A stretch of DNA of 64,000 bases, from positions 1,568,001 to 1,632,000 of the forward strand of contig CAXXDV010000001.1 of NCBI GenBank assembly GCA_963674745.2. Direction: 5' to 3'. Below, piece by piece: positions 21,347 to 41,046 of the stretch. The position numbers and the translations under genes were made by a program. Position 1 is the stretch's first letter. Each line of letters begins with the position of its first letter. The notes beneath the pieces are model-generated. The model was not told where the DNA came from and made no database searches. It saw nothing but the letters and a program-made list of their open reading frames with translations. Source of the stretch: Desulfosudaceae bacterium (GTDB lineage: Bacteria > Desulfobacterota > Desulfobacteria > Desulfobacterales > Desulfosudaceae).

Positions 21347-22680
21347 GGTTCTTCTCCCAATTAGTGGGAGGAAAAGGCCTGTATGACCTTTAATGTAAAG
21401 TATCTATCGTCATGAAATCCATAGGATTTTCGTTTTATGACCTTAATTTTATTATTAACACCTTCTATTTTACTGGTATGAATCGGATAATCGCAATGGT
21501 TCAGGATGCCGTAAGCGTGCCTTTCAAGCATGTCGGCAAATTTCTGTACGGGCCTGTGGCTCACCGTTCTGGCCAGGGCACACCATTCATCCAATCTCTT
21601 TTTGGCCCAGCCCCTTTTTTGATAGTCCCATATTCGCTTCAGACAATCTTTCAAAATCATGACCGTAGATATGGTTTCATTAATTTCAAGAAGCTGCCGC
21701 AAATGCTGCCGGGCCTCACTGCTATGAATATTCTGGGGATTGGACAGCAGCAAATACTTGGTTCCTTTGTATATCGCCTGGTCCGGCTTCGTCGCTTTTC
21801 TAAACTCTTCTATTCGAACTTTGTCGATCACCTTATTAAATGCGTGAACCACATGAAAAAGATCAAACACGATCTTTACATGAGGCACATTCTCTCGAAC
21901 CGTTTTAATGTAAGGATCCCACATATCCATGGCGATGGCTTCCAGCGCCTGTTTCTGTTCCTGGCTCATGCCGGCGAAAAAGACTTGAAGCGTCTCCACG
22001 GATCGGCCCCTGCCAAGCCATACCACCCGACCGGTTTGATAGTCCAAAACAACAGTCATATACGTATGGCCTTTATGGATGGCGATTTCATCAACCGCCA
22101 GTATGCTCAAGTCGCTGTAGTCCGTCCTTCCAAACGATTCTTCCAAAAAGTTTTTATCAATATTTTTGACCGTCTTCCAGTTGAGCTCCAAATGCGCGGC
22201 CACTTCAGAGACCGTCAAAATCTTACACAACTCATGGATATAAAGGGCCAGTCTTTTGGTAACCCGCTGGTACGGATTGAAAAAGTCCAGGTCTTCAACC
22301 CGAATACCCTGGCAACGGGGGCAATAAATTTTACGATATCTGCAGTTGATCCATACATTTGCGGCCCCAAGGTTCAAATCCCGCAACGGACGTCTGGCCT
22401 GGTCATGAACGCCTTGAGCCGGGCTGCCGCAACTATAACAAATAGGGCGATAGCGCTCGTCTGGCTCGGCAATTATCATCGCCATATCTCCGGCGTCAGA
22501 AACCGTTTGTTTTGTAAAACGGACTCGACAAAAAGGGAGATAGGGCTTTATACTCATAGCGGACATCATCGGTCTCCTTTCTTCCAGAATTGTCTCTCAA
22601 CTTTCTGGATAGAAGAAAGAACTGATGATGTCCATTTTTTATTAGCAGCTTAACTCCTCCCACTAATTGGGAGAAGAACC
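21347..22680 (-). mobile_element. ISL3-family insertion sequence, 1334 bp
   Basis: Perfect 26-bp IRs ggttcttctcccaattagtgggagga; 8-bp target duplication aaacttta at 21339-21346 and 22681-22688. Confidence 0.95.
21361..22569 (-). CDS. ISL3-family transposase
   Basis: CYSCG/CPRC zinc finger, AVDE, AMDMWDPY, FDLFHV, EGVNNKIKVIKRKSYGF. Confidence 0.96.
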   Translation of the reverse strand: MMSAMSIKPYLPFCRVRFTKQTVSDAGDMAMIIAEPDERYRPICYSCGSPAQGVHDQARRPLRDLNLGAANVWINCRYRKIYCPRCQGIRVEDLDFFNPYQRVTKRLALYIHELCKILTVSEVAAHLELNWKTVKNIDKNFLEESFGRTDYSDLSILAVDEIAIHKGHTYMTVVLDYQTGRVVWLGRGRSVETLQVFFAGMSQEQKQALEAIAMDMWDPYIKTVRENVPHVKIVFDLFHVVHAFNKVIDKVRIEEFRKATKPDQAIYKGTKYLLLSNPQNIHSSEARQHLRQLLEINETISTVMILKDCLKRIWDYQKRGWAKKRLDEWCALARTVSHRPVQKFADMLERHAYGILNHCDYPIHTSKIEGVNNKIKVIKRKSYGFHDDRYFTLKVIQAFSSH

Positions 22681-22818: not shown

Positions 22819-24708
22819 TCAACCCCCTAAAACCTGTGGCGTCAGATGGCATGACGAGGTCGAAAACATATCCTTATCAACCGTACTGACCAGTTGCCAG
22901 CCGGCTTTTGTCAGGAACGCCTCTACAGCCGGCCGTTCGGGCTCAAAAACCATGAAACAGACGTTGTCCTTTGGCTTGAAGCGGGTGTTGTGGCCGGTGG
23001 GTGACAGTTTGCCGTTTTTTCGAATGGCCACACCGAGCAATCCGTTTCCGGAATAGTCGGCCGGCAGGGTTACTTCCGATGATTCGGACGGGGTCTCTTC
23101 AACAAATTTCCAGGTCTGGAGGTAAACCTGCCTGGCATCAAGGCGGTGGCACCAGGCATCAACATCCACCGGCGCGCCGAAGGCCACCTCAACACCGGCC
23201 TGGTGGAGCATTTTTTCGGTCAGGGACGTGGTATCGGCCTGCAGGGCGGCAAACAGGTCAATTTCTCTGGCTTCTATCTTTACCTTCTGGGCAAAAAGGA
23301 AATTGACCTCGTCATTGACGGTCAGGGCCAGGGCCCCCTGGCGGGTATCGATTCCGGCCCGTTTTAAATACCTGGCCTGTAGGCCGTTGCCGTAAAGAAC
23401 CCGTGTGCAGTCTTCCTGGGCGGCATTGCAGTTGTCGGCATTGGAGTCGATGCAGACCACCTCCTGGCCGTCCTCCTTGAACAGCCTGGCCAGGGCACGT
23501 GCCAGGGCATTGGCCCCGAGAATGACCCAGCCCATTCCGCTGGGCCGCCGCAAACCCAGCGCCCCGGCCATGATGCCGCCGGTCAGGCCGGCGAAAATCA
23601 CCGTTACGGCGATGACCAGAAAAACCAGGGCGCGAAGTTCATATCCGCCGGGCATGCCTTTGGATGAAAAAGCCGCGGCAAAAAAAGAAGCCACGGCTGC
23701 GGCTACGATGCCCCGCGGGCCGATCCAGGAGACAAACCATTTTTCTTTTAAGGTCAGCCCGGAAAACATGGTGCCGGCAAACACCGCCAGCGGCCGGACC
23801 AGAAACATCAACACCAGAACAACACCGACAGCCGGCCAGCCCAGATCGATGACCTGGGACAGGCGGACATCGGCTGCCAGCAGCACGAACAGCATACCGA
23901 TCAGCAGAACCGTCAGCTCCTCTTTGAACTCGAGCAGTTCCCGCAAAGCATAGGAACTGAAATTGCCGACGCCGATACCGGCCACGATCACGGCGGCAAT
24001 ACCGCTTTCCGGCACAATCATGTTGGTGCCCTGAAACAGGACCAGTACAATCGACAGCGTAAAGACGTTGGTGCTGCCTTCCGGAATCCAGCGTTTTGTC
24101 TGGCACAGAAAGATCAACAAAGCGGCCGCGACACTGCCGCAGGCAGCACCGAAGCCGATGCGGAACAATATATGCCAGGCCCATATCAGCGGGCTGCCTT
24201 GATCGGGGCTCAAGGCCGCTTCCAGAGCCACCATGGCCACCACCGCGCCGACAGCGTCAATCAATACGCCTTCAGCTTCCAGTACGGTGGCCACGGAACG
24301 TTTCACTTTGAGCCGTTTTAAAAGCGGATTGATTACCGTGGGACCGGTAACCATGACCAGAGTACCGAAAAGTACGGCGTTTTTCCAGGGCCAGCCGAGA
24401 ATATAGTGAACGGCTACCGCGCCGCCGGTCACCGTCACCAGGCCGCCGATGGTGATCAGCTGGCGAATGGAGCGCCGGGCACGCTTAAGTTGCCTGCCCT
24501 TAAGGTTCATGCCGCCTTCAAAAAGAATAACGGCCACGGCGAAACCGATCAGGATGTTCAGGGCGGACCCCAGTTCGGCCGGGTGTATCATGCCCGCGCC
24601 GTCCGGGCCGAAAGCAACACCGGCGGCCAGCAGCAAAACGATGCCCGGTACCCGCAGGTGATGTGCCAGCGACTGCGCGATCATGCCCAGGGCCAGGGCC
24701 AGGGCCAT
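22819..24708 (-). CDS. CPA1/NhaP-type cation:proton antiporter with C-terminal TrkA-N (RCK) domain
   Basis: ILFEGG, TGPTVI, EGVLIDAVG, GPRGIVAA; then ILGAN Rossmann-like domain. Confidence 0.9.
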   Translation of the reverse strand: MALALALGMIAQSLAHHLRVPGIVLLLAAGVAFGPDGAGMIHPAELGSALNILIGFAVAVILFEGGMNLKGRQLKRARRSIRQLITIGGLVTVTGGAVAVHYILGWPWKNAVLFGTLVMVTGPTVINPLLKRLKVKRSVATVLEAEGVLIDAVGAVVAMVALEAALSPDQGSPLIWAWHILFRIGFGAACGSVAAALLIFLCQTKRWIPEGSTNVFTLSIVLVLFQGTNMIVPESGIAAVIVAGIGVGNFSSYALRELLEFKEELTVLLIGMLFVLLAADVRLSQVIDLGWPAVGVVLVLMFLVRPLAVFAGTMFSGLTLKEKWFVSWIGPRGIVAAAVASFFAAAFSSKGMPGGYELRALVFLVIAVTVIFAGLTGGIMAGALGLRRPSGMGWVILGANALARALARLFKEDGQEVVCIDSNADNCNAAQEDCTRVLYGNGLQARYLKRAGIDTRQGALALTVNDEVNFLFAQKVKIEAREIDLFAALQADTTSLTEKMLHQAGVEVAFGAPVDVDAWCHRLDARQVYLQTWKFVEETPSESSEVTLPADYSGNGLLGVAIRKNGKLSPTGHNTRFKPKDNVCFMVFEPERPAVEAFLTKAGWQLVSTVDKDMFSTSSCHLTPQVLGG

Positions 24709-24756
24709 GGTGGTTCCCGGATTGTGAAAGATTGACGTATCTATTTTTCCGGCCTG

Positions 24757-25413
24757 TTATTTTATTGATTTTATTTTTCCCAGGTCTGATTCCCGGCCCA
24801 GGATAATAAGAATATCACTTTCCTTGATGACAAAATCGGCTCCCGGAACCATCACAAAGCGTTCCGGATGCCGCTCCTTGACTGCGATTATGTTGATTTC
24901 ATAACGTTTTCTCAAGCTCAGGTCCTTCAGGGATTTGTCAACAAACGAAGGCGGCGGCTCTATCTGGACGATGGTAAAACCTTCTTCCAAGGGGAGAAAG
25001 TCCAGAATGTTTGGAGAAGTCAGCCGCAGGGCCAGACGGTAGGCCATGTCCACGCCCGGCAGAATGATTTCCGACGCGCCCAGTTGTTTGAGAATTTCGC
25101 CATGATCATCATCTTCGGCCTTGACGATAATACGTTTTATTCCCAGCCGGGCAAGATAATGACAGATCAGGATACTGGGTTTGATATCATCGCCGGTACT
25201 GACGATAACCGCGTCCGCCTCCTCCAGTCCCAGCCCCTTGAGGGCCTCGAAATCGGTAAGGTCCTGAACGATGGCGCTGGTGCAGTGTGGCGCAATGCCC
25301 TGAACCCGTTCTTTGTCCCGGTCAAATACGATGACTTCGTTTTTGTTTTCATAAAGGGATTTGGCAACGTAATATCCGAACTTTCCGGCGCCCACAACGG
25401 CGAATCGTTTCAT
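24757..25413 (-). CDS. ktrA: Ktr/Trk K+ uptake NAD-binding subunit
   Basis: VVGAGKFG RCK-N domain plus TrkA-C domain. Confidence 0.88.
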   Translation of the reverse strand: MKRFAVVGAGKFGYYVAKSLYENKNEVIVFDRDKERVQGIAPHCTSAIVQDLTDFEALKGLGLEEADAVIVSTGDDIKPSILICHYLARLGIKRIIVKAEDDDHGEILKQLGASEIILPGVDMAYRLALRLTSPNILDFLPLEEGFTIVQIEPPPSFVDKSLKDLSLRKRYEINIIAVKERHPERFVMVPGADFVIKESDILIILGRESDLGKIKSIK

Positions 25414-25497
25414 TTGTTCCTCTCCTTAACCCGAATGTTTCACGGGTTGATTTGGACCCGAACCCCTGGCTCCTTCTAAAATACGCAGGCCACGATG

Positions 25498-25555
25498 TAG
25501 GGGCACCCCCCTGTGGGTGCCCTTTTCCCGGGCGGCCACAGGGGGCCGCCCCTAC
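25498..25555. repeat. Composite GTAG REP doublet
   Basis: gtaggggcacccccctgtgggtgccc..gggcggccacagggggccgcccctac; near-identical to 55557-55615. Confidence 0.8.
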
Positions 25556-25578
25556 AACATTTGTGAGCAGCCTGTAAC

Positions 25579-26934
25579 TTAGCCGATCATCATGTTTTCT
25601 TCCGCATACTGAACACCTTTGGTCGTACCGCCGCCGGCAATAATATACGTAAACACCGGCACACCCACCCGACCGATAATCATCAAGAAGATAATGACCA
25701 GTTTTCCGGACCAGGTCAGTACCGGGGTGACGCCCATGGACAGTCCGACCGTGCCAAAGGCCGAGACGGTTTCAAAAAGATAGCTCAAAAACTGGCGGTT
25801 TCCCTGGGTGCGGATACCGTGAGACGGGTCCAGAAACAGGATTAAAAAGACAGCCAGGCAAATGGCACTCAGGGAGAAAAGCAGCACGGATATACTCTTG
25901 TTGACCGTATTGGCAGGAATGGTTTTTTTGAACAGGTTGGTGCACTTGTGGTGTCTCAGGCGGTTCCATGAAAATGACGCCAGAACGGCCAGGGTGGTGG
26001 TTTTTATGCCGCCGCCGCAGGAACCCGGTGAAGCACCCACCAGCATCAGAAACATCATGAACAGCAGGGTGGCCGTATTCAAGGATGCTATGTCAAGGGT
26101 ATTGAAACCGGCGGTGCGACAGGTGATGGATTGAAAAAGGGCTGCCAACAGATCATCGGCCGTGTTCGGAGAAGTCGTCAGGATCCGTTCGGACACAAAA
26201 ATAACCAGGGTTCCGCCGACAATCAACCAGGCGGTTACCGCCAGTACGCTTTTGGTCTGGATCGACATTTTGCCGGTTTTTTTTCGGATGAGGCGGCCGT
26301 AGAGTTCGTAAACCACTGGAAATCCGATTCCGCCCAGCAATATCAGGCTGCAGATAATCATGTTCAGCGGGATGGAGGTTCGCTCGTCAATAAAGCTGTT
26401 GTTAAACAGAGAGAAGCCGGCGTTACAGAAGGCTGAGACAGCATGAAAGGCGGCATTGAAACTGGCCTCGGGCAACGGAAAAGCCGATCGCCAGTGAAAA
26501 AACAGGGCCATAGCGCCCATGGCTTCGACCGTAATCGTAAAAATAAATATCGAGCGGATCAGCCGGTAAATATCTTTGCGTGGGGTATGGGAAAAGGTCT
26601 CCTGCATGGCCATTCGCTGCTGAAAGACGACTTTCTTTCCGATCAGCTGAAACAGGGCCACGGATATGGTCATGATGCCCAGGCCGCCGATTTGAATCAG
26701 CGCCAGGATAATTGACTGTCCGAAAAGGGTAAAGCAGGTGCCGGTATCCACCACCACCAGGCCAGTGACACACACGGCCGAGGTCGCCGTAAACAGGGCG
26801 TCAAGCAGGCCGATGTGGCCCGCCGCTACGGTCGCAACCGGCAGCATGAGCATGATCGTGCCGATCGCAATTGCCACCAGATAACTGGTCAGCAGCAGCG
26901 TGCTTGGGTGAGCGTGCTGAAACCAGGCGCGCAT
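25579..26934 (-). CDS. ktrB: Ktr/TrkH K+ uptake membrane subunit
   Basis: SAVCVTGL, SAFCNAGF, RTAGF, SAFGTVGLS pore loops. Confidence 0.9.
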   Translation of the reverse strand: MRAWFQHAHPSTLLLTSYLVAIAIGTIMLMLPVATVAAGHIGLLDALFTATSAVCVTGLVVVDTGTCFTLFGQSIILALIQIGGLGIMTISVALFQLIGKKVVFQQRMAMQETFSHTPRKDIYRLIRSIFIFTITVEAMGAMALFFHWRSAFPLPEASFNAAFHAVSAFCNAGFSLFNNSFIDERTSIPLNMIICSLILLGGIGFPVVYELYGRLIRKKTGKMSIQTKSVLAVTAWLIVGGTLVIFVSERILTTSPNTADDLLAALFQSITCRTAGFNTLDIASLNTATLLFMMFLMLVGASPGSCGGGIKTTTLAVLASFSWNRLRHHKCTNLFKKTIPANTVNKSISVLLFSLSAICLAVFLILFLDPSHGIRTQGNRQFLSYLFETVSAFGTVGLSMGVTPVLTWSGKLVIIFLMIIGRVGVPVFTYIIAGGGTTKGVQYAEENMMIG

Positions 26935-27091
26935 CCAGGGCCTCCATCAGTTGTTAATTCGGATATTCCACGAGTTGATGCGGACCCGAACCTTTGGCTC
27001 CTTCTGCAAGGCGCAGGCCGCGAACTCATCAAGGGGCACCCCCCTGTGGGAGCCCTTTCATCGCTCTAAATAGCCCCGCTGCGCATTTCTG

Positions 27092-28045
27092 TCAATGCTG
27101 ATGACTTTCGCAGGTGCTGTCGCCCGGTTCACATCCTGTTTTGCGGCAGAGCAGTTCGCCCCGGCCGCAGGCGGAGGTCTCAAACTGCAGTACCGGATGA
27201 TCAATGCCGAAGTTATCCATCAATATATCATTTATCGTCATCGTCAGGCTTTCGGTGGCACTGATCAACTGGTCGGGTACCACGACATGTGCGGTCAAGG
27301 CTACAGAGCGGTTTCCCATGCTCCAGGCGTGAAGGTAGTGAACGCTGTCGACGCCGTCTATGGATTCCAGGGCGGTTTTGACGGCCTCGAGATCCAGCCC
27401 CCGGGGCACGCCGTTCATCAGCACATGGACCGCTTCTTTTACCAGCACCACGCTGTTCCATACGATATACACCACAATGGCCAGGCTCAGGGCCGGATCC
27501 AGCCACGGCAGGTCGGCCACCTGCATGACCAGCGCGCCGACCAGAACCGCTACCGATGTCAGCATGTCGCCGATCATGTGGAGAAAAGCGCCCCTGGCGT
27601 TGAGGTTGTGTTCAGAGTCGCGGTGCAGCAGCCAGGCGGCGGCCCCGTTGCCCGCGATACCCAGAAGCGCCAGCCAGAATACGATGGTCAGGTTGATGGG
27701 CCGGGGATCGGCCAGTCGGGCCAGCGCTTCAGCCGCTATATACATGGCGGCACCGCACAAAAGCGCGGCATTGACGAGGGCGGCCAGAATTTCGATACGC
27801 TGCAGACCGAAGGTGTGCTGCACAGACGGGCCCCGTTTTGCGGCCCGGTGGGCGCCGTAGGCCACCACCAGGGCGGCAAAGTCTCCCAGGTTATGGACCG
27901 CGTCCGAAATCAGGGCCACACTTCCGGCTAAGAGGCCGCCGATGATTTGAGCCGCCGGAATCAGCAGATTGATCACCATGGCCAGCATCAGCCGTCTGCC
28001 GAGGGTCTCGGTAAGTGAGTGGTTATGTGAGTGGTGCGGGTTCAT
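27092..28045 (-). CDS. Cation diffusion facilitator (CzcD/ZitB-like)
   Basis: His-rich N-terminus, SDAVHNLGD, AFLHMIGD, HYLHAW; Cys-rich C-tail. Confidence 0.93.
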   Translation of the reverse strand: MNPHHSHNHSLTETLGRRLMLAMVINLLIPAAQIIGGLLAGSVALISDAVHNLGDFAALVVAYGAHRAAKRGPSVQHTFGLQRIEILAALVNAALLCGAAMYIAAEALARLADPRPINLTIVFWLALLGIAGNGAAAWLLHRDSEHNLNARGAFLHMIGDMLTSVAVLVGALVMQVADLPWLDPALSLAIVVYIVWNSVVLVKEAVHVLMNGVPRGLDLEAVKTALESIDGVDSVHYLHAWSMGNRSVALTAHVVVPDQLISATESLTMTINDILMDNFGIDHPVLQFETSACGRGELLCRKTGCEPGDSTCESHQH

Positions 28046-28054
28046 TTCCTGTAT

Positions 28055-28963
28055 TTAAAAAGTTAAAGAAATCCCCCCCTGAACAATGTGCTGGTCATAA
28101 TCATAAATATCTACATTTGAGTGGGTATGGACAAACGTGTAGCGGGCCATAAAACCCAACATGTCATTGATTTGAAAGCCGTATTCAATGCCCATGCTGG
28201 TTAAATTGTCCTCGCGCCGGTCAGAGGAGGTTCCGTTAAGATAATCCCAGGCCCGGGCATCATAATCAATCTGCTGGTAATCGCCGAGAATCCGGAAGAT
28301 GTTCCGGTCTTTAAGGCTGATAAGGTAAGACATGCCGCCGCCAAGGGCGCGTCCGTCTTCATCAAATGTCGGGTATTCGTCCACATCCTCGATCTGGGAT
28401 ATTGTTGCGTAAAAATCAACGGCCTGATTTATTTCGGGAAAACTTATCGTGACCGTGGGCGATGCCGTATAACGATGATAACTGGATTCATTGTCTTCTC
28501 TGGAATAAATGTATTTCAGCGGCAGGCTGAAGATGACGTTTCCCCGGTACCACTGCGGTTCTATGGACAACAGCTGGTCGAGTACATCATTTTCTTTGAA
28601 CTCCTCGTGAAGATCCGCATAAACATTGTAGTCGGCCCGGAGTCCGAAACCGTCGCTGAATTTGTGCTGCCAGTAAGTCGACAGGCTGATAAATCCGGCA
28701 TAATCATCCGGGTCGTCATCGGTGTAGGCAGCGTCCAGGTTCTCGACAATGTGTGAATCGTATTTGGCGCCAATGAGAACGGAAGCACCGAAATTACGGG
28801 TTTTTTCCGTCTGGTTTTTTATTCTGTCCTGAATTTTGGCTCCCCCGACCTGGGAGAGGCTCTGCGACGTGGCACTGCAGCCTCACCCCGCCGCCCAGGC
28901 CATGGTTGTGTTCATCATGTATAAAACGATAAATACGGTCAGGATACCAACTTGTTTCTTCAT
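28055..28963 (-). CDS. Secreted outer-membrane beta-barrel-like protein, 302 codons, with in-frame TGA at codon 27 (candidate selenoprotein; alternatively a nonsense pseudogene)
   Basis: Manual translation: MKKQVGILTVFIVLYMMNTTMAWAAG-TGA-GCSATSQ... is open into the 28055-28570 ORF; alternating aromatic strands; C-terminal ISLTF. Confidence 0.75.
28840..28858 (-). promoter_or_regulatory. Candidate bacterial SECIS hairpin
   Basis: CUCUCCC-AGGUC-GGGGGAG, 7-bp stem; loop starts 31 nt after the UGA; loop resembles the E. coli fdhF AGGUCU. Confidence 0.6.
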
Positions 28964-29887: not shown

Positions 29888-32443
29888 ATGAAACGTATAA
29901 ATGCAGTTCTATTAATTGTTTTATGGGTGGTCTTTCTTTCACCCGGTCTTACCGCAGCCGGAACAGGTGAAGAAGATATTATCCCGACTGTTAAATCAAG
30001 CACCCCGGTTAACCCGGATTTATTTAAGAGCGTGGTGCCCGACTACGCTCGAGCCGTCGGTGATGTGTTGACGGTTTCAATCGATTCCAGCGGGTTCCCG
30101 GTCATTCTGTTGACGGTCACGCTTCAGAGTTCAACCGGAGACCCCATCAGCAATTTGATGATCGATGACTTTCAGGTGTCCGAACAGTCTGACCAGGAAA
30201 GCGCACCGACCGTTGAAGCCATTGATTCAGTAAATGAAACCGTTGAAAGCAGCGGCGCTTCACTGGGCTTGTTGTTCGACCTCAGCGGCAGCATGCTGTT
30301 AAATGGACGTGTCGACATGGCCAGGCAGGATGCCTTGTGCTTGTTAGATCTAATGGGATCAAATGATCGTGTCATGCTGATGTCGTTTTCCGGACCTGGT
30401 TCAGCGATGGAAATTCTGCCCCCCGGCCCGTTTACCCGGGATGCGGATGGAAACGGCCGGTATGACATTATCGAAGCGGTGAACAGCCTGTCGACGACAA
30501 AAGGCTTCAGCACAGCTGTTTACGATGCCGTGGGCATGGCAATCAGCGCCATGCAGGCGGAATCTCAGCCAAAGGGCATCGTGCTGTTCTCTGACGGCCT
30601 GTCAAACAACGATAATGTCTATGACATTAATGCTGCCATTCAAATGGCAACAAACGCCGGTATTCCTGTTGCGACACTGATTTATGGGAATGAAAACCAG
30701 CAGATTGACGGCCTTGCCGCCGGAACCGGCGGGGTGGCGTTTAATGACCCGGCCTGTCAGGACATGGACGGACTCTACAATTCATATACAACCGCTACAA
30801 CCAGCACCTATACCATCACCTATACCTCCCATAATCCTGAAGAAGACGGAACCAATCGTACGGTGAACGTGACTTATGACGGCGCTACGGGTACGGCGAC
30901 TTATGCGGTCTCCGGAACAACGCCGGTTGAGCCGGGCCAGTGCACCGAAAATTGTGGTGGTGGAACGGGCTGTTTTGTGCAAACCATGGGCGGTAATACG
31001 CTTTCCAGTCTTCGGGTTTTTTCGTATGTTTTGTTCTCGGCGCTGGTGGCGGGGCTGATTCTCTTTTTGCTCAGGCGATTTTCCGCCAGGCAGAACATCA
31101 CTTTTCTGCTGGTGATTTTTGTCCTGGCCCTGTCGGGCATGGCAAACAATCCGGCACAGGCCGGTTTGCGCAAAGGCGCCTTTTCCATCAGTCCCATGGC
31201 CGGTATTTATTATTTTGATGATGACCAGGAAATCGAAAAAGACCCTGTGGCCGGTTTCGGTCTTGGTTATCAGTTTGCCGATAACTGGGGCGTCGAACTT
31301 ATGTTGAACCATGGCCGGTATGATTATCATTACCTGGTGGCCGCCCAGTGCCTTTGCGAGACGGATGATGTCAGCGCCGACCTGGGAAGAATTGACTTGT
31401 TATATCATCTGTGGCCGGAAAGCGACCTGGTGCCGTATCTGGCTGTCGGCTTCGGGGGCATAAGCCTTGATTTTGACAGTTTTGATAAAGAAGACGACAT
31501 TTTTGCCGATTACGGCGGCGGTCTTCTCTACTTTTTGTCCGAGGACATCGCCTTTCGGGCTGATGTGCGGGGAATACACACCTTTGACGATTCTTACAAC
31601 AATCTGGCCGCTACGGTCGGCGTTTCTTTTCTGTTGGGTGGAAAACACAAAGCCGGTGCGCCCTGCGAAACGGCGGCAAAGCCTGTTCCGCCCACAACCC
31701 CTGTTGGAAAAGGGGCAATTGCCCCGGCCCCGGTTATGGCCGCCAGACCGGCCGACTTTCATATCCTGTTCGATTTTAACAAAACGGCGGTTAATCCAAA
31801 ATACTATAATAATTTCAAATCGGTAGCAGATTACCTGAAGGCCTATAAGCAAATTGTGTTAAGGATTGAGGGGTATGCCGACGCCATCGGTTCAGAGGCC
31901 TATAACCAGGCGCTTTCTCTGCGTCGGGCACAAAGCGTCAGCGCTTATCTGTCCACCAACTTTAATGTATCACGGTCACGAATGTACGTTGTCGGATTAG
32001 GTGAGCAGCATCCGGTTGCCGACAACAGCACCAGAGAAGGTCGGCGCCTGAACCGGCGGGCGGAATTGAATTATCTGGTTCCTGTGGCCACACCTCCGGA
32101 GGTCGGTTTTGACATCCGGTTCGGGTTTGACAAAACGGACGTCAACCCGGCCCTGGCGGGCAGTTTTGAACAGGTGGCCGAATATCTGAATAATTATAAC
32201 GAAATCGTATTGGGTATAGAAGGTAATACCGACGTCACCGGCCCCCAGTCATATAACCGCGAACTTTCCATGCGTCGGGCCTTGAGCGTCGGTAACTATC
32301 TGTCCGCAAGCTTCAATATTCCGTATTCACGGATGCAGTTTGCCGGTTTCGGCGAAAGCAGCCCCACGGCTGATAATGCGACGTTGACAGGCCGGAGGGC
32401 GAATCGCCGCGTTGATTTAAAGTGTTTTAAAGTGGCAGAATAG
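29888..32443 (+). CDS. VWA-domain / OmpA-family fusion protein (beta-barrel plus two OmpA C-terminal domains)
   Basis: MIDAS DLSGS..T..SDG; GGGTGCF plus two hydrophobic segments; barrel strands; two N..LS.RRA..V / NRR peptidoglycan-binding domains. Confidence 0.85.
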   Translation: MKRINAVLLIVLWVVFLSPGLTAAGTGEEDIIPTVKSSTPVNPDLFKSVVPDYARAVGDVLTVSIDSSGFPVILLTVTLQSSTGDPISNLMIDDFQVSEQSDQESAPTVEAIDSVNETVESSGASLGLLFDLSGSMLLNGRVDMARQDALCLLDLMGSNDRVMLMSFSGPGSAMEILPPGPFTRDADGNGRYDIIEAVNSLSTTKGFSTAVYDAVGMAISAMQAESQPKGIVLFSDGLSNNDNVYDINAAIQMATNAGIPVATLIYGNENQQIDGLAAGTGGVAFNDPACQDMDGLYNSYTTATTSTYTITYTSHNPEEDGTNRTVNVTYDGATGTATYAVSGTTPVEPGQCTENCGGGTGCFVQTMGGNTLSSLRVFSYVLFSALVAGLILFLLRRFSARQNITFLLVIFVLALSGMANNPAQAGLRKGAFSISPMAGIYYFDDDQEIEKDPVAGFGLGYQFADNWGVELMLNHGRYDYHYLVAAQCLCETDDVSADLGRIDLLYHLWPESDLVPYLAVGFGGISLDFDSFDKEDDIFADYGGGLLYFLSEDIAFRADVRGIHTFDDSYNNLAATVGVSFLLGGKHKAGAPCETAAKPVPPTTPVGKGAIAPAPVMAARPADFHILFDFNKTAVNPKYYNNFKSVADYLKAYKQIVLRIEGYADAIGSEAYNQALSLRRAQSVSAYLSTNFNVSRSRMYVVGLGEQHPVADNSTREGRRLNRRAELNYLVPVATPPEVGFDIRFGFDKTDVNPALAGSFEQVAEYLNNYNEIVLGIEGNTDVTGPQSYNRELSMRRALSVGNYLSASFNIPYSRMQFAGFGESSPTADNATLTGRRANRRVDLKCFKVAE

Positions 32444-32510: not shown

Positions 32511-33019
32511 GCCTCTATGGCATCCGGGCTGCCTTTGTGTTTAAATATCCTGTTATTCCGATATTTTATATTGGCATCGGCCTGCCAGATGCTTTTTGTG
32601 TTTATGGTATCCCGGCTGGTCGTGACTTGAAATGTGATACGCTTGTAAAAAGTCAAAGGCTAATATTTTATTATTTAAAGAAAAAGGCGGATTAGGGAAT
32701 AATTCTATTTTTTGGTAGGAATTAAGGGGGAAAGTACAAGGCATTAATTTGTCATTAAGTCGCGTCGTTTCTTGCTTTTTTTGACTTTTTCACTTGACTT
32801 TTGAAGCTGTTTTTTGATAAAAAAATCACTTGTAAAAATGTTTTTGGGGAAGGAAAAGACTACCACAATATGCAAAAGGGCTTTTTTAGCGGGCGGAGCG
32901 CATGCGCCCCGGGGCGTACTTAAGGCGTATTTCTGCTTTCGGTCGTTCTTTTACTGAAAAGCCTTGTTTGCGATTTGATTACAGGACCATCTTTATTGTC
33001 TGCCGGAAAAGGAGAAACT

Positions 33020-34282
33020 ATGAAAAAGATATTTCTTGTGGTTCTAATGGCTGGTGTGCTGTCGGTTTCCGTTGCGGGGGCGGAAGATTTGAATGATGCC
33101 GTAACAGGCATGCTGGCGTCACATGACCGGATGGCCGCGGCTGAAGCGGATGTCTTGGCGGCCGAGAATTCCGCCAGAGTGGCGCTGGGGGGATGGTTTC
33201 CAAACATATCCCTGACCGGGGAGTACGGCGCTTCCAGAAACCATTACGAAGATACGGATATCATGCATCTGGACCCGGCCCTGTTCGAGGCCAGGCTGAC
33301 CCAGCGTCTCTGGGACTTCGGCAAAACAAACGGCGAGGTTCGTAAAGCCAAAGCCGCATATGAGCGGGCACTGGCTGCAAGAGACAATACCCGGCAGGAA
33401 TTGATTTTAGAAGGCGTAACCGCCTACCTCAAGCTCAAGCAGGCTGAAGAGCTGTTAAAGTACTCCAGAAAATCTGTGGAAAATATCAAAGAACAAACCA
33501 GCATGGAAAGCACCCGGATTTCCGCCGGTCAGGGGTACTCAACCGACGTGTTGCAGGCCAAGGCCCAGCTTCTTGGCGCCGAGGCCAGATTGAGCCGGGT
33601 GGAAGGCATGCTCCAGGGCGCCAAAAACAGGGTGCTGAACGCTTTTAAACGACCGGCCGGAGAAATTTCCGCGCTCACCATGGGTGAGTCGGTTGTCAAG
33701 CTTCTGCCGGCAACCCTGGAGGAGGCCGAGGGTGTTGCCTTAAAAGCCAATCCCAGACTCAAAGTGGCTGACGCCATTGTCCAGGAAGCCGAAGAAAACG
33801 CCAATACCCGCACGGCCGGGGCTTACTATCCCACCATCAACGGTGTGCTGGACTATAACTACAAAGATGACTACGGCGCCATCGAAGGCTGGCGAAAAGA
33901 AGGGCTGGCCAAGGTCGAAGTGAGATATGATTTTGATCTGGGCTTTACATCCGTGAACGTCTCAAAAGCGGCTGATGAAACCTATAAAGCCGCTTTGAAA
34001 GGCCGGGAAGATGTGAAACAGCAGGTCCTTGAAAACGTCCGCAATGCCTGGCAGAATGTTCTGACGGCCGACAAGAACGCCAGGCTGTTAAGAGACCAGG
34101 CCGATATCGTGGCCCAGTTTCTGGAACTGGCCCGTAAAGAACGGAAGATGGGACGGCGTTCGCTGCTTGATGTGCTGAGCGCAGAAGTCTCCCTGATCAA
34201 TGCCCGCAGCGACGCGGCCGCGGCTGAGGCCGATGTGAATGTTTATGCCTATACCCTGATGCAGGCCATGGGCAAACTTTAA
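33020..34282 (+). CDS. TolC-family outer membrane channel of a type I secretion system
   Basis: Signal peptide, LTQRLWDFG, GRRSLLDVL; AAGGAG RBS before ATG 33020. Confidence 0.93.
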   Translation: MKKIFLVVLMAGVLSVSVAGAEDLNDAVTGMLASHDRMAAAEADVLAAENSARVALGGWFPNISLTGEYGASRNHYEDTDIMHLDPALFEARLTQRLWDFGKTNGEVRKAKAAYERALAARDNTRQELILEGVTAYLKLKQAEELLKYSRKSVENIKEQTSMESTRISAGQGYSTDVLQAKAQLLGAEARLSRVEGMLQGAKNRVLNAFKRPAGEISALTMGESVVKLLPATLEEAEGVALKANPRLKVADAIVQEAEENANTRTAGAYYPTINGVLDYNYKDDYGAIEGWRKEGLAKVEVRYDFDLGFTSVNVSKAADETYKAALKGREDVKQQVLENVRNAWQNVLTADKNARLLRDQADIVAQFLELARKERKMGRRSLLDVLSAEVSLINARSDAAAAEADVNVYAYTLMQAMGKL

Positions 34283-34349
34283 TTCGAAAAAAGTGTTTTG
34301 TTAAATATATGGTTTTTGTTTTTGTAGTTTAATTTCTTGGAGGTGCCAG

Positions 34350-37300
34350 ATGGCAGAGACCCAGACTGTATTGACCCAAACCATGACAGCCGCTAAAGCA
34401 GCCTTTCTATCGTCCATGGGGCAGAATGTGCCTTCCATGGATGCCGCTGAGGCCGGTTTTAACGCGATGGAAGCATCTTTTAAGGCGATGTTCGGAGATG
34501 CTCCGGCCGATTTCGCGGAACTGAAAGCCGCGGCCATGGCCCAGTTCAATCAGGCCTTGAGCGACGGCATGTCGGCAGAAAGCGCCTTTAACAGCGCTTT
34601 GGCCAATTTCTCCACCGCCATGGCCGAGACCGATTTTGGCGGACAGACAGAGGGCGGGTCAATCACTCTTGATGAGGTCATCAGCATTTCCAGAGATATT
34701 GACGGAATGCTCGATCTGGGCGATCTGGGGCTGGACGGTGAGTTTGGCGGGTCCGGAAATGGTTATGTCGGCCATGGCGAAGACAATTCCCTTTTCGCAG
34801 GTAAAATCGGCGCCTTCGGCGGCCATCAATATGGCGGAGGCAGCGGGCAGGAGTTTGATGATCCCACTGATTACATGCTACATGGTGGTGGAGACGGTCC
34901 GGGTCCGGGTCCGGGTCCGGGTCCTGGTCCGGGTCCTGGTCCGGGAACGCCGGCCTCTTTTGCCATCCAGGCCGATGTCGCTTCTGTCCTTGAAGGCGAT
35001 TCCGGCACTACGCTTTATACATTCACGGTTACCCGGGCCGGAGATACCGGCGGCACCCATCAGGTCGACTGGGATGTGTCCGGCAGCGGCACCAATCCGG
35101 CCGACAACGCGGATTTTTCCGGTTTGCTGATGCCGTCCGGCATGCTGACTTTTGCGCCCGGCGAGACCACCAAGACCATTACCGTGGAGATTGCCGGCGA
35201 TATGATGGTTGAGAACACGGAAACCTTTACCGTAAATCTTTCAAATCCCACCGGCACCGGATCCCAGATCACCACCGCCTCGGCCCAGGGCACCATCATT
35301 AATGATGATGCCGGTGATACTGGTGACGGAGCCCTGTTTACCATTGCCGCCGACAGTCCGGTGGACCAGAAAGAGATGGATACCGGTGAGACAACCTATT
35401 ATACCTTTAATGTCAACCGGTCCGGTAATACCGACGTTGAACACACCATTGACTGGAAGGTGATCGGCAGCGGAGACCATCCGGCTGATGCCATTGACTT
35501 CGGCGGTGTGATGCCGGGCGGTGTCCTGACCTTTGCCGCCGGTGAAACCACCAAAACCATTACCGTGGAAGTGGCTGGAGACCTGGACATTGAAGACCAC
35601 GAAACTTTTGAGGTTATCATTTTCAACGCTTCCGGCGGCGCCCAGATCGGCATGCCCTTTGTGCTGGCCACGATTGTAAACAATGACAGCCCGGTTGGGA
35701 CGGACCCCTGTGCCCCCTGCACCCTGCAGGCGGTTAACATGGCCACCGCGACGACGAATATCACCCTGACCGGTGATGATTTTTGTGACTACCTGCAAGT
35801 CAACCTGACCAATACAACCGGCGGTGTCAGCGGCTATAACATCAACCTGGACGGCATGGCCTGCGGAGACACGATCATTCCCAGATTGATCGGCAGCAAT
35901 GTCTCAAACAACAGTGTTAACATTCTGGGCGGGGACAGCAGCGATACCATCAGGGTCACCATGCAGGCGTCGGACGCTTCTTCCGGTTCCTGGGGATCGG
36001 CATCGGCCGATGTCAACGGCAATATCATCAACATTGATGCCGGGGCCTGCAATGATAACGTGTCGGTCCTTTTAGGGGCATATGCCCAGGCCAGCAATAC
36101 GGGTTCGACTTCGGCCGCTGTCAGTTCCGTTACGGCCTCTGTCTATTCCAATAACGTCGTCATGCTGGGCGGCACCGGCAACGACACCCTCTCTCTGACC
36201 CTGGAGGCCGAGGCCACAGCTTATGCCAGCGCCTCATCGCCGGCTTCTTCCGCGACCGCTTCTGCTTATTCTGCCAATGCTTCCATTTACAGCAATATCG
36301 TCACCATGTCCGGCCAGGATGGCAATGACACCCTGACCGCCATGCTCAGGGCGTCGGCAAGAAGTTCCGCCATTGCCCATGCCGGCGGAACCCATGATGC
36401 TCAAGCTTCGGCTGCCTACTACTCACCCGAGGCATCTGTATACAATAACACCATCAATATGCATGGCGGCACAGGCTATGATATGCTCAGCCTAACCCTT
36501 TCAGCCGATGTTGCCGTTTACGCTTTTGCCTCTGCGGCCTTAGGCTCCGCTTCAATCACCGAAGCCGTTGAAGAAAATGCCTATGCTTATGTGTACAGCA
36601 ACCATGTTTCCATGACCGGCGGTGATGGAAATGACACCCTGTCCGCCAGGCTGGCCGCGAATCTGCATGTAACCGCCTCCGCCATTGGTTACAGTGATGC
36701 TTTAGTCGACACAGTTGCGTCCGGTTATCTTACAGCCATTGTTTCCAGCAACACCGTCACCATGGACGGCGGGGCCGGCAACGACACCCTGAGCCTGAAT
36801 GCCACGGCTGATATGTCAATTTACGCACTCGCGTCAGCAGAAACAGGCTCTGCTGCCGTTTATTACGTCTGTTATTCATATGTTTATAACTCTGTTGATA
36901 GCAATACCTTCAACCTGCTCGGCGGTGATGGAGACGACTCACTCTCCGCCCTTTTGGCGGCTAACGGCAGGTTAACGGCATCGGCCATTGGCAGCACAAG
37001 CGCGTCGTTATATTCTATCGCTTATTATACCCTTTCCGCGTATGTCGGCAGCAACGATGTTTTCATGACCGGCGGTGATGGAAATGACACCCTGAGCCTG
37101 ACCGCCGCAGCTGACTGGTCGATATACGGACTTGCTTCGGCTGATTCTGGCAATGCCTACATTTATTATTTTCTTTACTATTCTGTCTTAGCCACTGTCG
37201 AGAGCAACGACTTTACCATGACCGGCGGCGCCGGAAACGACTCGCTGTCCGCTTTACTGGCGGCCGATATCCAGGTGACGGCATCGCTTCTTGCCGGTGA

Positions 37301-40300
37301 TGGATATGCGACCATGAGCTACGTCAATTATTCCTACGCCACCGCCTCCGTTCACAGCAACTATGTCAGTATGGACGGCGGCGCCGGCATGGACACTCTG
37401 ACGCTGGGTCTTATGGCCGAAAATAACATCTACGTATATGCCTCGGCACAGAGCGATTCAGCCGAAGCCAGTATATACTACTATGTCCAGGCTGACATCT
37501 CGGGAAATACCATTCACATGTTCGGCGGCGGTAGCCACGACGAACTGGATCTTCAGCTGATGGCCAATGCCCAGGCCCGGGCAACCGCGATCGCTAACGG
37601 CCCCGGTGGAACCAGCTACGGCGCGGATGCTGTCGCCTATACGGTTACCGCTTCCATAAACCATAACACCATCACCATGACCGGCGGGACCGATGCCGCC
37701 AACGACACCCTGACCGCCATGCTGGCAGCTTCTGCCAAAGCCACGGCTATTGCCGTCGGCGGAACCGGAACATCGGGTGCGAGTGCATCCGCATACTATG
37801 CCTACGCCTATGTTTCCTACAATGATATTAGCATGGACGCCGGCCCGGGCGATGACACCCTGTCCCTCACCCTTTTCGCCGATGCCCAGGTTTATGCCGA
37901 CGCCTCGGCGCCGTCAGGGGATGCGTCTGCTTATGGTTACGATGCGACTGCCTATGTCACAAACAACACCATTGACATGTACGGCGGCGCGGGCAATGAT
38001 TCACTCTCGGCCCTGCTGACCGCTTCTGCCAGAATCACGGCTTTTGCCGAAGCCGGAGATTCAGGGGATGCGACCGCTTCTGCCTATTCGGCTGAGGCCA
38101 ATATTACCGGCAATGACATTTTTATGGGTGGCGCCTCCGGTACCGACACCCTGTCCCTGGGCCTTTTGGCCCGGGCCGCGCTCTATGCATCGGCTGTGGC
38201 AACATCGTCCGGAGATGCCTTTGCCTCTAATTATGATGTCGACGCTTCAGTATATTCAAATACCATCACCATGGTTGGTGGCGGCGGGCATGACACCATC
38301 AATCTGACCATAACGGCTGATGTGTCCATGTACGCCCGTGCGGCTGCCACGTCTGGTCATGCCTCAATCGACTTAGCATCCTCCACGATCTATGCTTATG
38401 TCGCCAGCAACAATATTTCCATGCTCGGCAGCGGCGGTGACGATAATCTGTTCGCCCTGATGAGCGCCCATATTAACGGTACGGCCTCCGTTCTGGCCGG
38501 TGGTACCAGTGGTGTCAGCGGCTCGGCGACCATGAGCTATGACCCGTATTATTATATTTATGCCAGCAATGTCAGTAACACCGTTTTCATGGGCGGCGGG
38601 ACCGGTAACGACACCCTCGGCCTGACCATGGCGGCCCGCATGGAATTTGACTTCCTGGCTTCAGCAGCATCCTATTCCGCCAGCATCAATGAACCCTTTT
38701 ACTCCACGGCCAGCGCCAATGTCTCCAACAACACCGTTACCATGACCGGCGGATCCGGAAACGATACCCTGACGGCACGGTTGACCGCCAGCTTTGCGGC
38801 CGCTTTTACGGCCCGGGCCGGCGGCACCGGTTCAGCAAGCATTGATTCTGCCCCGTACTATTATATTTACGCTGATAATAACGATAACATTATTTTCATG
38901 TACGGTAGCGGCGGCGATGATACCCTGGGACTGACCATGGCGGCCAACATGACGTTCTCCTTCCTGGCTTCCGCAGAATCCAGTGATGCCACCATATCTT
39001 CCGCGCCTTACTCCACGGTCAGCGCCAATGTTTACAGCAACGATATATCCATGACCGGCGGCACGGGCGCGGACCATCTGACAGCCCGGCTGAGCGCGCA
39101 CGGCGAGTTTGACTATGCGGCCATTGCCGACAATGGCGGTGATGTCTACATTTATTATGCTCCCTACTCTTATGTCACGGCGTCGGTATACAGCAACGAT
39201 ATTTTTATGGGCGGGGGCACGGGAAATGATGTCCTTACCCTGACCATGGCGGCGGACATGGAACTTGACTATTTAGCTTCCGCACCGATGGGCACAGCCT
39301 CCATATACTCGGGCCTCTATTACACTGCCTACGCCAATGTGTTCAGCAATACCGTAGCCATGACCGGCGGCGACGGCGTTGACTCCATTAACGTTCTGCT
39401 GGCCGCTTCAATCAGGGTTGACGAGTCCGTCATTGCCGGTAACGACGCCAGTATATATTATGGTTGTTATTACGCGCCTTACGCGGAGGTTTACAGCAAT
39501 GATGTTGACATGTTCGGCAACGCCGGCAACGACTCCCTGAACCTGACGCTGGCGGCCCAGGCCACGGTCCATGTCTTTGCAAACGCAGGATCATCCGCCA
39601 TTGCTTCAAATTATTATGGCGGCTCCGCGCTGGTAAGCAGTAATACAATTTCCATGACAGGTGGGACCGGCAACGACAGCCTTCATGCTTTACTGACAGC
39701 CGTCGACAACATTACCGGCACAGCCTACGGCGATACATCCGCTAATGCATATGCTTATGATGGGCAAGCCTTTATCAGCAATAACACGCTTAATATGTTT
39801 GGCAGCAGTGGCCAAGATCTTTTGTCTGCCACGTTTGCGGCCTGGGGGTCAGCCGATGCCTTGGCCAGAGCAGTAACCGTTTCAGCCAGTGCCTATGCCT
39901 CGGCCTCGGTTTCTGCCACTATACAAAGCAACAACCTTCTCATGTCAGGCGGTTCGGGCAACGATACGCTTTCGGCTGCGTTTTCCGCAGGAGCCAATGC
40001 CTCGGCAACTGCGGTGGCACCGGGCTTCCTCGGCAGCGCCAGCGCTGATGCCTCTGCTTACGCCTATGTAAGCAACAATAGCATCACCATGATCGGCGGT
40101 AGTGGAACAGGCCACCTGTCCCTGACCTTGAAGGCGACGGCATCGGCCTTTGCATGGGCGAATTCCCCGGGTTCCGAAAGTGCAAGTGCTTCTGTCGATG
40201 CCAGAGTCAATAACAATGTCGTCGATATGAACGGCGGATCAGGCAGTGACACCCTGTCGTTGAACATGACCGCCTCGGCCTTTGCCTCAGCCTCGGCCTC

Positions 40301-40898: not shown

Positions 40899-40915
40899 AC
40901 AGCAACAGGGTTTAT

Positions 40916-40951
40916 AAAAAAAGGGAGCCGGAAGTCCGGTTCCCTTTTTTT
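40916..40951 (+). terminator. Intrinsic terminator after the RTX-like gene
   Basis: aaaaaaagggagccgg-aagt-ccggttccc followed by a T run. Confidence 0.85.
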
Positions 40952-41046
40952 GGTGATTAGAATAAGACTTGAATTTTACCATCGGAACGATTACATTAAA
41001 AAGTCTTTAAAAAACAGGTAAAAACAGAAATATAGCAGGAGTTACT

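Follow-up and report, generated by a model that had tools for sequence, protein, structure and literature searches.

Does the single in-frame TGA of a gene carried by the minus strand of a 64,000-nucleotide stretch of a Desulfosudaceae bacterium genome (assembly GCA_963674745.2, contig CAXXDV010000001.1, positions 1,568,001 to 1,632,000; the whole stretch is hereafter called the window) end translation, or does it encode a selenocysteine (Sec)? The gene lies at 28055..28963 and would comprise 302 codons and a TAA stop. From the ATG at 28963 to the TAA at 28057-28055, it forms one frame whose only interruption is the TGA at codon 27 (28885-28883). A first-pass annotation made from the letters of the window had proposed that this frame encodes an exported outer-membrane beta-barrel with Sec in a U-G-C motif at the mature N-terminus, and that a hairpin resembling a selenocysteine insertion sequence (SECIS) follows the TGA. 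The comparison with homologues presented here indicates that this is very probably a real and conserved selenoprotein gene, hidden by standard gene calling. The overall explanation, i.e. a Sec-decoded and exported outer-membrane barrel bearing an arm that would bind soft ligands, is likewise held with considerable confidence.

The encoded protein can be divided into three predicted parts. Residues 1-24 (28892..28963, minus strand), which read MKKQVGILTVFIVLYMMNTTMAWA, have the build of a signal peptide when judged by eye (MKKQ at the start, a hydrophobic core and A-W-A at the end) and are followed by A-G-U-G-C-S. Signal peptidase I would most likely cut after Ala24 of the A-W-A motif, or else directly before Sec. 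Residues 25-57 (28793..28891, minus strand) would constitute the N-terminal arm of the mature protein, including a disordered part that carries U-G-C (residues 25-41) and a helix (residues 41-52). This arm contains the UGA codon 27 (28883..28885, minus strand), whose assignment to Sec draws on the conservation of the TGA column, the presence of Cys at this site in two homologues (P0016 and P0018) and the presence of the Sec machinery in the genome. It also contains the TGC codon of Cys29 (28877..28879, minus strand), the partner of Sec in U-G-C, which is invariant in alignment A2 (8/8); a Cys partner placed as U-x-C is found in all the Sec forms described below (20/20). The third part, residues 58-302 (28058..28792, minus strand), would be an outer-membrane beta-barrel of about 12 strands ending with a Phe, as suggested by a structure model, Foldseek matches and weak Pfam matches. 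The frame with its single TGA at codon 27, the signal peptide, the UxC motif and the terminal Phe all lie where the first-pass annotation had placed them.

The Sec reading is carried by the comparison between homologues, which concerns both the TGA and the hairpin. When the read-through protein is used as a query, seven close relatives are found in the protein database, and all seven gene calls (7/7) start past the TGA and lack the signal peptide, the pattern expected if gene callers stop at the TGA. A six-frame search of 401 genomes of the same order retrieved six full-length matches (100, 61, 41, 38, 39 and 35% identity), each of them with exactly one TGA. In two distant matches (29-30% identity), the matched part began further downstream, and the DNA shows the same TGA after a signal peptide. 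Related loci were then collected by scans. With an alignment of six closer sequences as the query, 15 loci were retrieved from a set of one genome per species (four duplicates, two C-terminal fragments, eight new TGA forms and one Cys form), and a scan of metagenomes gave eight (four TGA forms, two Cys forms, and two loci, L053 and L059, whose N-terminus is unreadable or broken). Taken together, the TGA occupies the same alignment column in 20/20 distinct Sec-type loci from independent assemblies of genomes and metagenomes, with protein identities as low as 25%. In these 20 Sec forms, it is located 0-3 residues past a small-x-small motif and is followed by x-Cys. The context of the site is W-A-A-G-U-G-C-S-A-P-S in most of them, G-G-U-N-C-S in L017 and L-W-A-U-A-C-D in L018. 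Homologues whose records include the N-terminus have an in-frame hydrophobic leader with a small-x-small end upstream of the TGA. The host organisms, where named, are Desulfobacterales-type metagenome-assembled genomes, plus one labelled Syntrophaceae.

Since the same TGA is found in 20 distinct homologues from independent assemblies, it is real, and neither a read error nor a strain-specific change. This bears directly on the possibility that the TGA is a true stop: the locus could be a pseudogene, contain an assembly error, or consist of a 26-codon leader peptide and, behind it, a distinct gene for the barrel. Gene callers of the standard kind read the TGA as a stop. Moreover, the sole sequencing run that extends over the TGA (0 differences) is probably the one from which the assembly was built and provides no independent read support. 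However, the coding sequence is conserved on both sides of the TGA in the 20 independent loci, a true stop would leave the barrel part without any signal peptide, and the Cys forms of the family are uninterrupted; a true stop is therefore considered extremely improbable. A 151-nt metatranscriptome contig matches positions 28684-28834 with eight differences and does not reach the TGA; it may indicate at most that the gene of a relative is transcribed.

Seven homologues carry Cys instead of Sec, four of which (P0016, P0018, P0010 and P0062) came from a profile search of 1.8 billion representatives. Two of the seven are CxC forms, P0016 (W-A-G-C-G-C-N) and P0018 (W-A-G-C-V-C-S), and have a Cys exactly at the Sec position. 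The CxxC forms are L043, L057 and L058, which read D-[DE]-C-x-x-C-S at the corresponding place, and the fragment P0062 (E-S-C-S-A-C-S), and the single CxxxC form is P0010 (D-C-S-T-S-C); in CxxC and CxxxC forms, the Cys is shifted by 1-2 residues relative to the Sec site. The expectation that homologues would show TGA or Cys at the aligned site is thus borne out by 20 Sec and seven Cys forms, none of which has Trp, Arg or Gly.

The genome encodes the machinery that Sec insertion calls for, as had been anticipated. It carries a tRNA-Sec (75.1 bits, anticodon TCA), SelA (527 bits), a SelB wing domain (71.8 bits) and SelD (368.6 bits), the last with a TGA of its own, as well as three FdhA-like genes, each of which has a single TGA. 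The five other host genomes tested, including one that holds a Cys form, all have SelA (5/5). The main SelB is located at C1:1156268. A second, weaker match to the SelB winged helix (29 bits) was observed outside the window, in a 678-aa open frame (G000:C3:1795409-1795540), and may correspond to a SelB paralogue.

The SECIS-type hairpin lies at 28840..28858 on the minus strand, with its loop 31 nt past the UGA. It consists of the 5' arm CUCUCCC (28858-28852), the loop AGGUC (28851-28847) and the 3' arm GGGGGAG (28846-28840), which form a stem of seven pairs including one G.U, and has a free energy of -10.5 kcal/mol when folded alone. It resembles the fdhF-type SECIS of Escherichia coli in being a stem-loop located within the coding sequence 3' of the UGA, with G-G/U opening a small apical loop. 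The model of the bacterial SECIS (bSECIS), in the part of a 2026 review that gives it (PMC13188914), includes an upper stem of 4-16 bp, a loop of 3-9 nt whose first two nucleotides include a G, a distance of 16-37 nt from UGA to loop and a free energy no higher than -7.5 kcal/mol. The hairpin of the window falls within all four ranges (7 bp, AGGUC, 31 nt and -10.5 kcal/mol). In 19 of the 20 Sec loci, the spacing between UGA and loop is 22-34 nt, and in 19/20 the hairpin energy is -8.5 kcal/mol or lower.

Two kinds of evidence point to the conservation of this hairpin as RNA. In an alignment of the 66 nt from the TGA onward in the 20 Sec forms, 97.5% of the cells of the hairpin columns pair. 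Two of the six hairpin pairs show changes on both sides, amounting to six cells (C-G to U-A in two sequences and U-A to C-G in four). The covariation score was matched by none of 500 shuffles (0/500), pairing was reduced to 47-60% when the 3' partner was slid by 1-3 columns, and loop positions 2-3 are GG in every Sec form. The second kind of evidence, which is independent of pairing statistics, comes from ten loci that share the identical peptide G-C-S-A-P-S-R-S-T-S-P-V-G-K-G-G. Inside the hairpins, their third-codon entropy is 0-0.47, except for 0.88 at the Val codon of the loop. Among the flanking codons, 8/10 vary (entropy 0.72-1.85), the others being an Ile/Leu codon (0) and a Glu codon (0.47). 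Synonymous sites are therefore frozen within the hairpins, which argues for a constraint on the RNA itself beyond that on the peptide. The SECIS-like hairpin with loop AGGUC suggested by the first-pass annotation is found at its place, and conservation, covariation and frozen synonymous sites now add to it.

In most members of the family, the interval that separates the UGA from the hairpin with the GG loop holds an additional hairpin (GCUCCG-UCA-CGGAGC). It was located at nt +10 to +24 past the TGA in L014, L016, L037, L038, L040, L041, L046, L052, L054 and L055, where its synonymous sites are likewise frozen, and could be the spacer helix of an extended SECIS.

Several observations do not favour a textbook SECIS. 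The window gene and L013 both lack the additional upstream hairpin. The FdhA-type genes of the host genome have a loop GGUCU or AGUCU 18 nt past the UGA, versus 31 nt here. One locus, L019, has a spacing of 43 nt, outside the range given in the portion of the review that covers the model (PMC13188914), and another, L049, has only a weak minimal hairpin (-6.1 kcal/mol). Furthermore, the 66-nt stretch of the window folds no better than its shuffles (z = 0.62; 143/200 shuffles as good). In naked RNA, the pair probability of the hairpin is 5-6.5% and the constrained fold lies 0.9 kcal/mol above the optimum, because the bases of UGA-GGCU compete for the 5' arm; leaving out the 12 nt that directly follow the UGA, which a paused ribosome would cover, brings the hairpin into the minimum-energy fold. 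Lastly, the covariation comprises few independent events, and many of the 20 sequences are close kin, which inflates the shuffle counts.

The distance of the hairpin from the UGA (31 nt versus 18 nt in the FdhA genes), together with the fact that structure-stimulated read-through of stop codons exists, would also suit a process in which the UGA is read by a near-cognate tRNA for Trp, Cys or Arg and the hairpin only slows the ribosome or aids read-through. Nevertheless, Cys is the sole replacement seen at the site (seven forms), without any Trp, Arg or Gly, the loop retains the GG typical of SelB-binding bSECIS, and SelA is present in 6/6 host genomes tested, so that near-cognate read-through is judged very improbable. 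The decoding of UGA27 as Sec with the help of the conserved hairpin is well supported by these comparisons. It can be viewed as follows: a ribosome reaching UGA27 would have melted the competing pairing around the UGA, and the hairpin thus freed would recruit SelB with Sec-tRNA(Sec), leading to the insertion of selenocysteine without termination.

The history of the Sec site was examined with a maximum-likelihood tree including 19 Sec forms, six Cys forms and, as an outgroup, the barrels of four TPR-barrel proteins (see below); five truncated gene calls, whose records do not include the state of the site, and the partial sequences L056 and P0062 were left out. The family forms one clade (100/100) in which the basal branches are Sec forms and the Cys forms make up two nested clades, in a tree whose rooting rests on this distant outgroup. 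At the place of the SECIS, the Cys form L043 has a hairpin of 6 bp (AUUCCC-UGCU-GGGAAU) whose loop lacks GG. A hairpin of the same type shows one mismatch in L057 and only four pairs are left in L058, the GG of the loop being lost in all three, as judged by eye. These hairpins look like SECIS fossils that persisted after the replacement of Sec by Cys. The family was probably Sec-containing in its ancestral state, and Cys later replaced Sec twice, accompanied by SECIS decay, since Sec forms are basal, Cys forms are found in two nested clades and the hairpin of L043 is devoid of GG.

What kind of protein carries this Sec? An AlphaFold2 model built from the alignment of 27 family sequences (mean pLDDT 74.9, pTM 0.74) comprises a leader helix, a disordered region that includes U-G-C (residues 16-41, pLDDT < 50), a helix (41-52) and, extending from residue 58 to the C-terminus, a barrel with about 12 strands. 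When this model was compared with the Protein Data Bank (PDB) by Foldseek, the top matches were all outer-membrane barrels of 12-14 strands, with E-values down to 5.6e-9. They include the autotransporter barrels EstA and NalP, CymA, OmpG, a COG4313 channel (TM 0.55), LpxR and PcoB (E 6e-6). In the model, the fold class is clear, and no specific structural family stands out. The C-terminal residue is Phe in the window protein and F or Y in 25/27 family members (alignment A5). A leader (seen by eye), about 12 strands and a C-terminal aromatic residue, i.e. the features of an integral outer-membrane barrel, are all found, and the proposal of a beta-barrel is backed by both the structure model and the fold search.

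Sequence searches give fainter signals. The window protein stays below the Pfam cut-offs of DUF481 (PF04338; 19.0 versus 21.1 bits, E 0.0015) and OMP_b-brl (16.6 versus 28.7 bits) and has no NCBIfam match; a sequence search of the PDB with the family profile gave nothing at E <= 1. Family-wide matches at E <= 0.01 among the 27 members are OMP_b-brl (26), BBP2_2 (17), SlipAM (PF04575; 15) and DUF481 (12). The family profile retrieves 1480 proteins at E <= 0.001; those beyond the family are mostly about 500 aa long, with the barrel as the C-terminal 290 residues. These TPR-barrel relatives are detected by hmmsearch with E-values from 1e-33 to 1e-15. Five relatives of about 500 aa were inspected: all have TPR matches in their N-terminal part (5/5) and four exceed the cut-off of Slam (PF04575). 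The window protein has no PF04575 match at E <= 0.01, the TPR domain is absent from the family, and the N-terminal Sec/Cys motif is absent from the TPR-barrel relatives inspected in this respect (P0031, P0036 and P0033). On these similarities, the barrel is a distant relative of Slam-like TPR-barrel proteins, and the TPR domain appears to be replaced by a short arm tipped with Sec/Cys in the selenoprotein family.

This relationship bears on the role of the arm. The abstracts of papers on Slam barrels describe them as carrying proteins to the cell surface. The arm could tether a protein at a Slam-like barrel or hand it over, the Sec/Cys pair forming an intermolecular selenenylsulfide or disulfide with a partner or cargo. 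In addition to the homology with TPR-barrel proteins (4/5 of those tested above the PF04575 cut-off), a parallel exists with the outer-membrane barrel MtrB of Shewanella. In the section of PMC12175506 concerned with it, the C42A mutant of MtrB loses Fe(III) reduction and the N-terminal CxxC is proposed to engage in a heterologous disulfide. However, no conserved neighbouring cargo gene was found at 21 loci, the family has no TPR domain, the window protein reaches no Slam score and the case is one of pure analogy. Such a tether is unlikely.

According to the preferred explanation, the product is an exported outer-membrane barrel, as inferred from the sequence and the model. The signal peptide would export the pre-protein and be cut at or just before Sec, so that the mature protein would start with A-G-U-G-C, with Sec among its first three residues. 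The C-terminal 245 residues would fold into the barrel of about 12 strands, and the first 30 or so mature residues would form a flexible arm in the periplasm. Two points weaken this part of the explanation: the signal peptide and its cleavage site were read by eye, and the periplasmic position of the arm is assumed from the general topology of beta-barrels.

The sequence A-A-G-U that precedes the glycine of U-G-C had also been likened to a lipobox. In that case, Sec27 would be the lipidated +1 residue and the product a seleno-lipoprotein processed by Lgt and signal peptidase II. Indeed, the residue before U is Gly or Ala in 19/20 Sec forms, and L018 reads L-W-A-U. The likeness does not extend to the whole family: Pro stands at -1 in L038 and Asp at -2 in L015, most forms carry Ala or Trp at -3 and not Leu, Val or Ile, and in the CxxC forms it is Asp or Ser that precedes the first Cys. 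The lipobox pattern [LVI][ASTVI][GAS]C is not found across the family, and lipoprotein status was rejected. The small residues would be just as suitable for signal peptidase I, lipidation is rare among integral beta-barrels, and a selenoether would presumably waste the chemistry that justifies the cost of Sec. Lipidation of Sec27 is thus highly improbable, and cleavage by signal peptidase I remains the preferred reading.

At the tip of the arm, the selenolate/thiolate pair would capture a thiophilic ligand, and the arm would pass it to or through the barrel. The candidate ligand is a soft metal ion (Zn, Cd or Cu) that would be delivered to the periplasm by a co-transcribed CDF pump; sulfane-sulfur or selenium species are the alternative. 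The gene of this pump, which belongs to the CDF family of cation efflux proteins (27092..28045, minus strand; Cation_efflux 1.1e-43, TIGR01297 1.1e-75), starts 9 nt past the stop of the selenoprotein gene. Promoter and terminator scans found nothing between the two genes. L013, from the same genus, has a rhodanese-domain gene 53 nt downstream of the family gene and, beyond it, an orthologue of the CDF gene (51% identity). The CDF gene is likely an operon partner of the selenoprotein gene in this genus. Soft-metal capture linked to the CDF pump is the function favoured here, tentatively, because of this CDF operon and because UxC is shared with the Cu/Zn efflux selenoprotein SO_0444. The spacing of the motif (UxC, CxC, CxxC or CxxxC) varies on a disordered arm, as would be expected of a flexible site of chelation or exchange more than of a rigid enzyme centre.

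The genomic context beyond this genus makes the functional part of the explanation weak. Among 22 neighbourhoods (the window and 21 loci), a CDF neighbour is found in only two, those of the window and L013, and no family-wide operon partner was found at the 21 loci examined. Their commonest arrangement is the gene alone, with a divergent gene for an Fe-alcohol dehydrogenase and a convergent gene for an SCP-x-type thiolase. Rhodanese-type neighbours, found in 3/21 loci, are also rare, and the gene upstream of L057 is not the one found at L043, although the two are about 96% similar.

These rhodanese-type neighbours are among the arguments for seeing the arm as a redox or sulfur-relay site, where U-x-C would undergo a selenenylsulfide/selenol-thiol cycle or act as a perselenide/persulfide carrier together with periplasmic proteins of the rhodanese type. 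One of them lies directly downstream of the family gene in L013. A gene encoding a fusion of CoA-disulfide reductase and rhodanese lies 44-77 nt upstream of the Cys forms L043 and L058, on the same strand. Besides, the CxxC of Cys forms is a classical redox motif, and CXC peptides such as C-G-C have been described as mimics of protein disulfide isomerase. The parts of the review devoted to such motifs (PMC13188914) regard most uncharacterised UxxC/CxxU selenoproteins as probably redox and include two U-G-C families. Against a redox or relay role stand the rarity of rhodanese-type neighbours and their absence at L057, the variable spacing of the motif on a disordered arm, which speaks against a precise active site, and Pfam scans in which no thioredoxin-like or other redox domain was found. 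A redox or relay function is possible, albeit doubtful, and ranks only just behind soft-metal capture, which is retained as the favoured function.

Is this a new kind of selenoprotein? Table 1 of the review (PMC13188914) lists 119 prokaryotic selenoprotein families, and small barrels of the DUF481, OMP_b-brl or Slam-like type are not among them. No NCBIfam selenoprotein model of release 20.0 is matched by any of the 27 members; for the two models of barrel selenoproteins, NF041027 and NF049945, this holds at E <= 0.01 (0/27). In the part of the literature on selenoproteins and outer-membrane barrels that was accessible, no description of the family was found; OS_HP2 (Zhang and Gladyshev 2007) could be the same protein. 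The gene thus seems to belong to an uncatalogued selenoprotein family of sulfate-reducing bacteria. The first-pass annotation had gone further and spoken of a class not recognised as described. The family itself is indeed absent from those catalogued, but exported barrel selenoproteins are already known, since the same table includes the GSU2204 MtrB/PioB family (NF041027) and a TonB-dependent receptor with FCYXU (NF049945), along with two families with a U-G-C motif and several selenoproteins of metal transport. It is therefore a new selenoprotein family and not a new class, because barrel selenoproteins are already known, as are UxC motifs tied to metals or redox chemistry.

The members of NF041027 are, like the window protein, predicted selenoproteins that form an integral outer-membrane barrel in anaerobic hosts of deltaproteobacterial type. 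They differ by their CXXCH motif and MtrB/PioB barrel, whereas the window family has a U-x-C at the mature N-terminus and a small Slam-like barrel. The TonB receptor of NF049945 is also an outer-membrane barrel selenoprotein and occurs in Desulfosarcina, from the same order-level group, but it belongs to a 22-strand receptor family and has a CxxU motif. Slam/DUF560 proteins (PF04575) and other TPR-barrel proteins are the nearest detectable sequence relatives of the barrel, from which the window family differs by the lack of both a TPR domain and a nearby cargo gene. The selenoprotein SO_0444 (NF033936), as listed in the review (PMC13188914), shares U-x-C and a link with divalent-metal efflux, represented here by the adjacent CDF pump. 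It is an inner-membrane transporter and not a homologue, whereas the Sec of the window would reside on a separate outer-membrane protein. PcoB (PDB 7pge) is a small outer-membrane barrel encoded by a metal-resistance operon and is matched by Foldseek with E 6e-6 and a TM of 0.56 on the target. This is a generic fold similarity (autotransporter barrels, CymA and OmpG score better) without any sequence similarity. The N-terminal region of PcoB is disordered and metal-binding.

The string W-A-A-G-U-G-C also fits the name of the NCBIfam model NF041054 ("ResA-like WAxxUGC motif-containing protein"), which gave no match at E <= 0.01. This likeness is probably a coincidence, W-A belonging here to the cleavage motif of the signal peptide.

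These results expose an exported protein that is invisible to current annotation, its gene being called only from a start past the TGA in 7/7 close database copies, and would add one selenoprotein family to about 119 catalogued ones. Only a few envelope selenoproteins are known. With this family, selenium chemistry would take place at the outer membrane and in the periplasm of sulfate reducers, a setting in which soft metals are rendered scarce or toxic by sulfide. The natural series of Sec and Cys forms (UxC, CxC, CxxC and CxxxC), combined with a decaying SECIS, offers a compact system for the study of Sec retention and of the constraint that a SECIS exerts on coding sequence. If the link with the CDF gene is functional, it would point to an unrecognised route for metals across the outer membrane. 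A wider picture, which is speculative, is that of an ancestrally Sec-containing outer-membrane family in which a Slam-like barrel had its TPR domain swapped for a Sec/Cys arm and became a gate that captures soft metals or chalcogens. It would provide the first case of Sec at the very N-terminus of a mature exported protein in the metal or sulfur traffic of the envelope in sulfidic habitats.

The CDF gene is the first of a run of cation-transport genes located downstream of the selenoprotein gene (22819-28045, minus strand). It is followed by genes encoding TrkH (25579-26934, minus), TrkA (24757-25413, minus) and a Kef-type Na/H exchanger with a TrkA_N domain (22819-24708, minus). As the gaps between CDF and TrkH and between TrkH and TrkA are about 160 nt, separate transcription units may exist within this run. 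No conserved promoter or operator block was found in the aligned 240 nt upstream of the family gene in the window and L013. An ISL3-family transposase gene (21361-22569, minus) adjoins the cation-transport cluster.

On the other side, a gene divergent from the selenoprotein gene (29888-32443, plus strand) encodes an unusual 851-aa fusion of a von Willebrand A domain, an OMP_b-brl/OprF-type barrel and two OmpA peptidoglycan-binding domains. Further on, a run of genes (32975-42834, plus) starts with a TolC-like outer-membrane efflux protein (32975-34282) and includes a TPR-sulfotransferase fusion (41047-42834, plus) and a 2182-aa protein whose sole Pfam match is one Calx-beta domain (34350-40898, plus). 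This run may encode a type I secretion substrate together with its outer-membrane factor.

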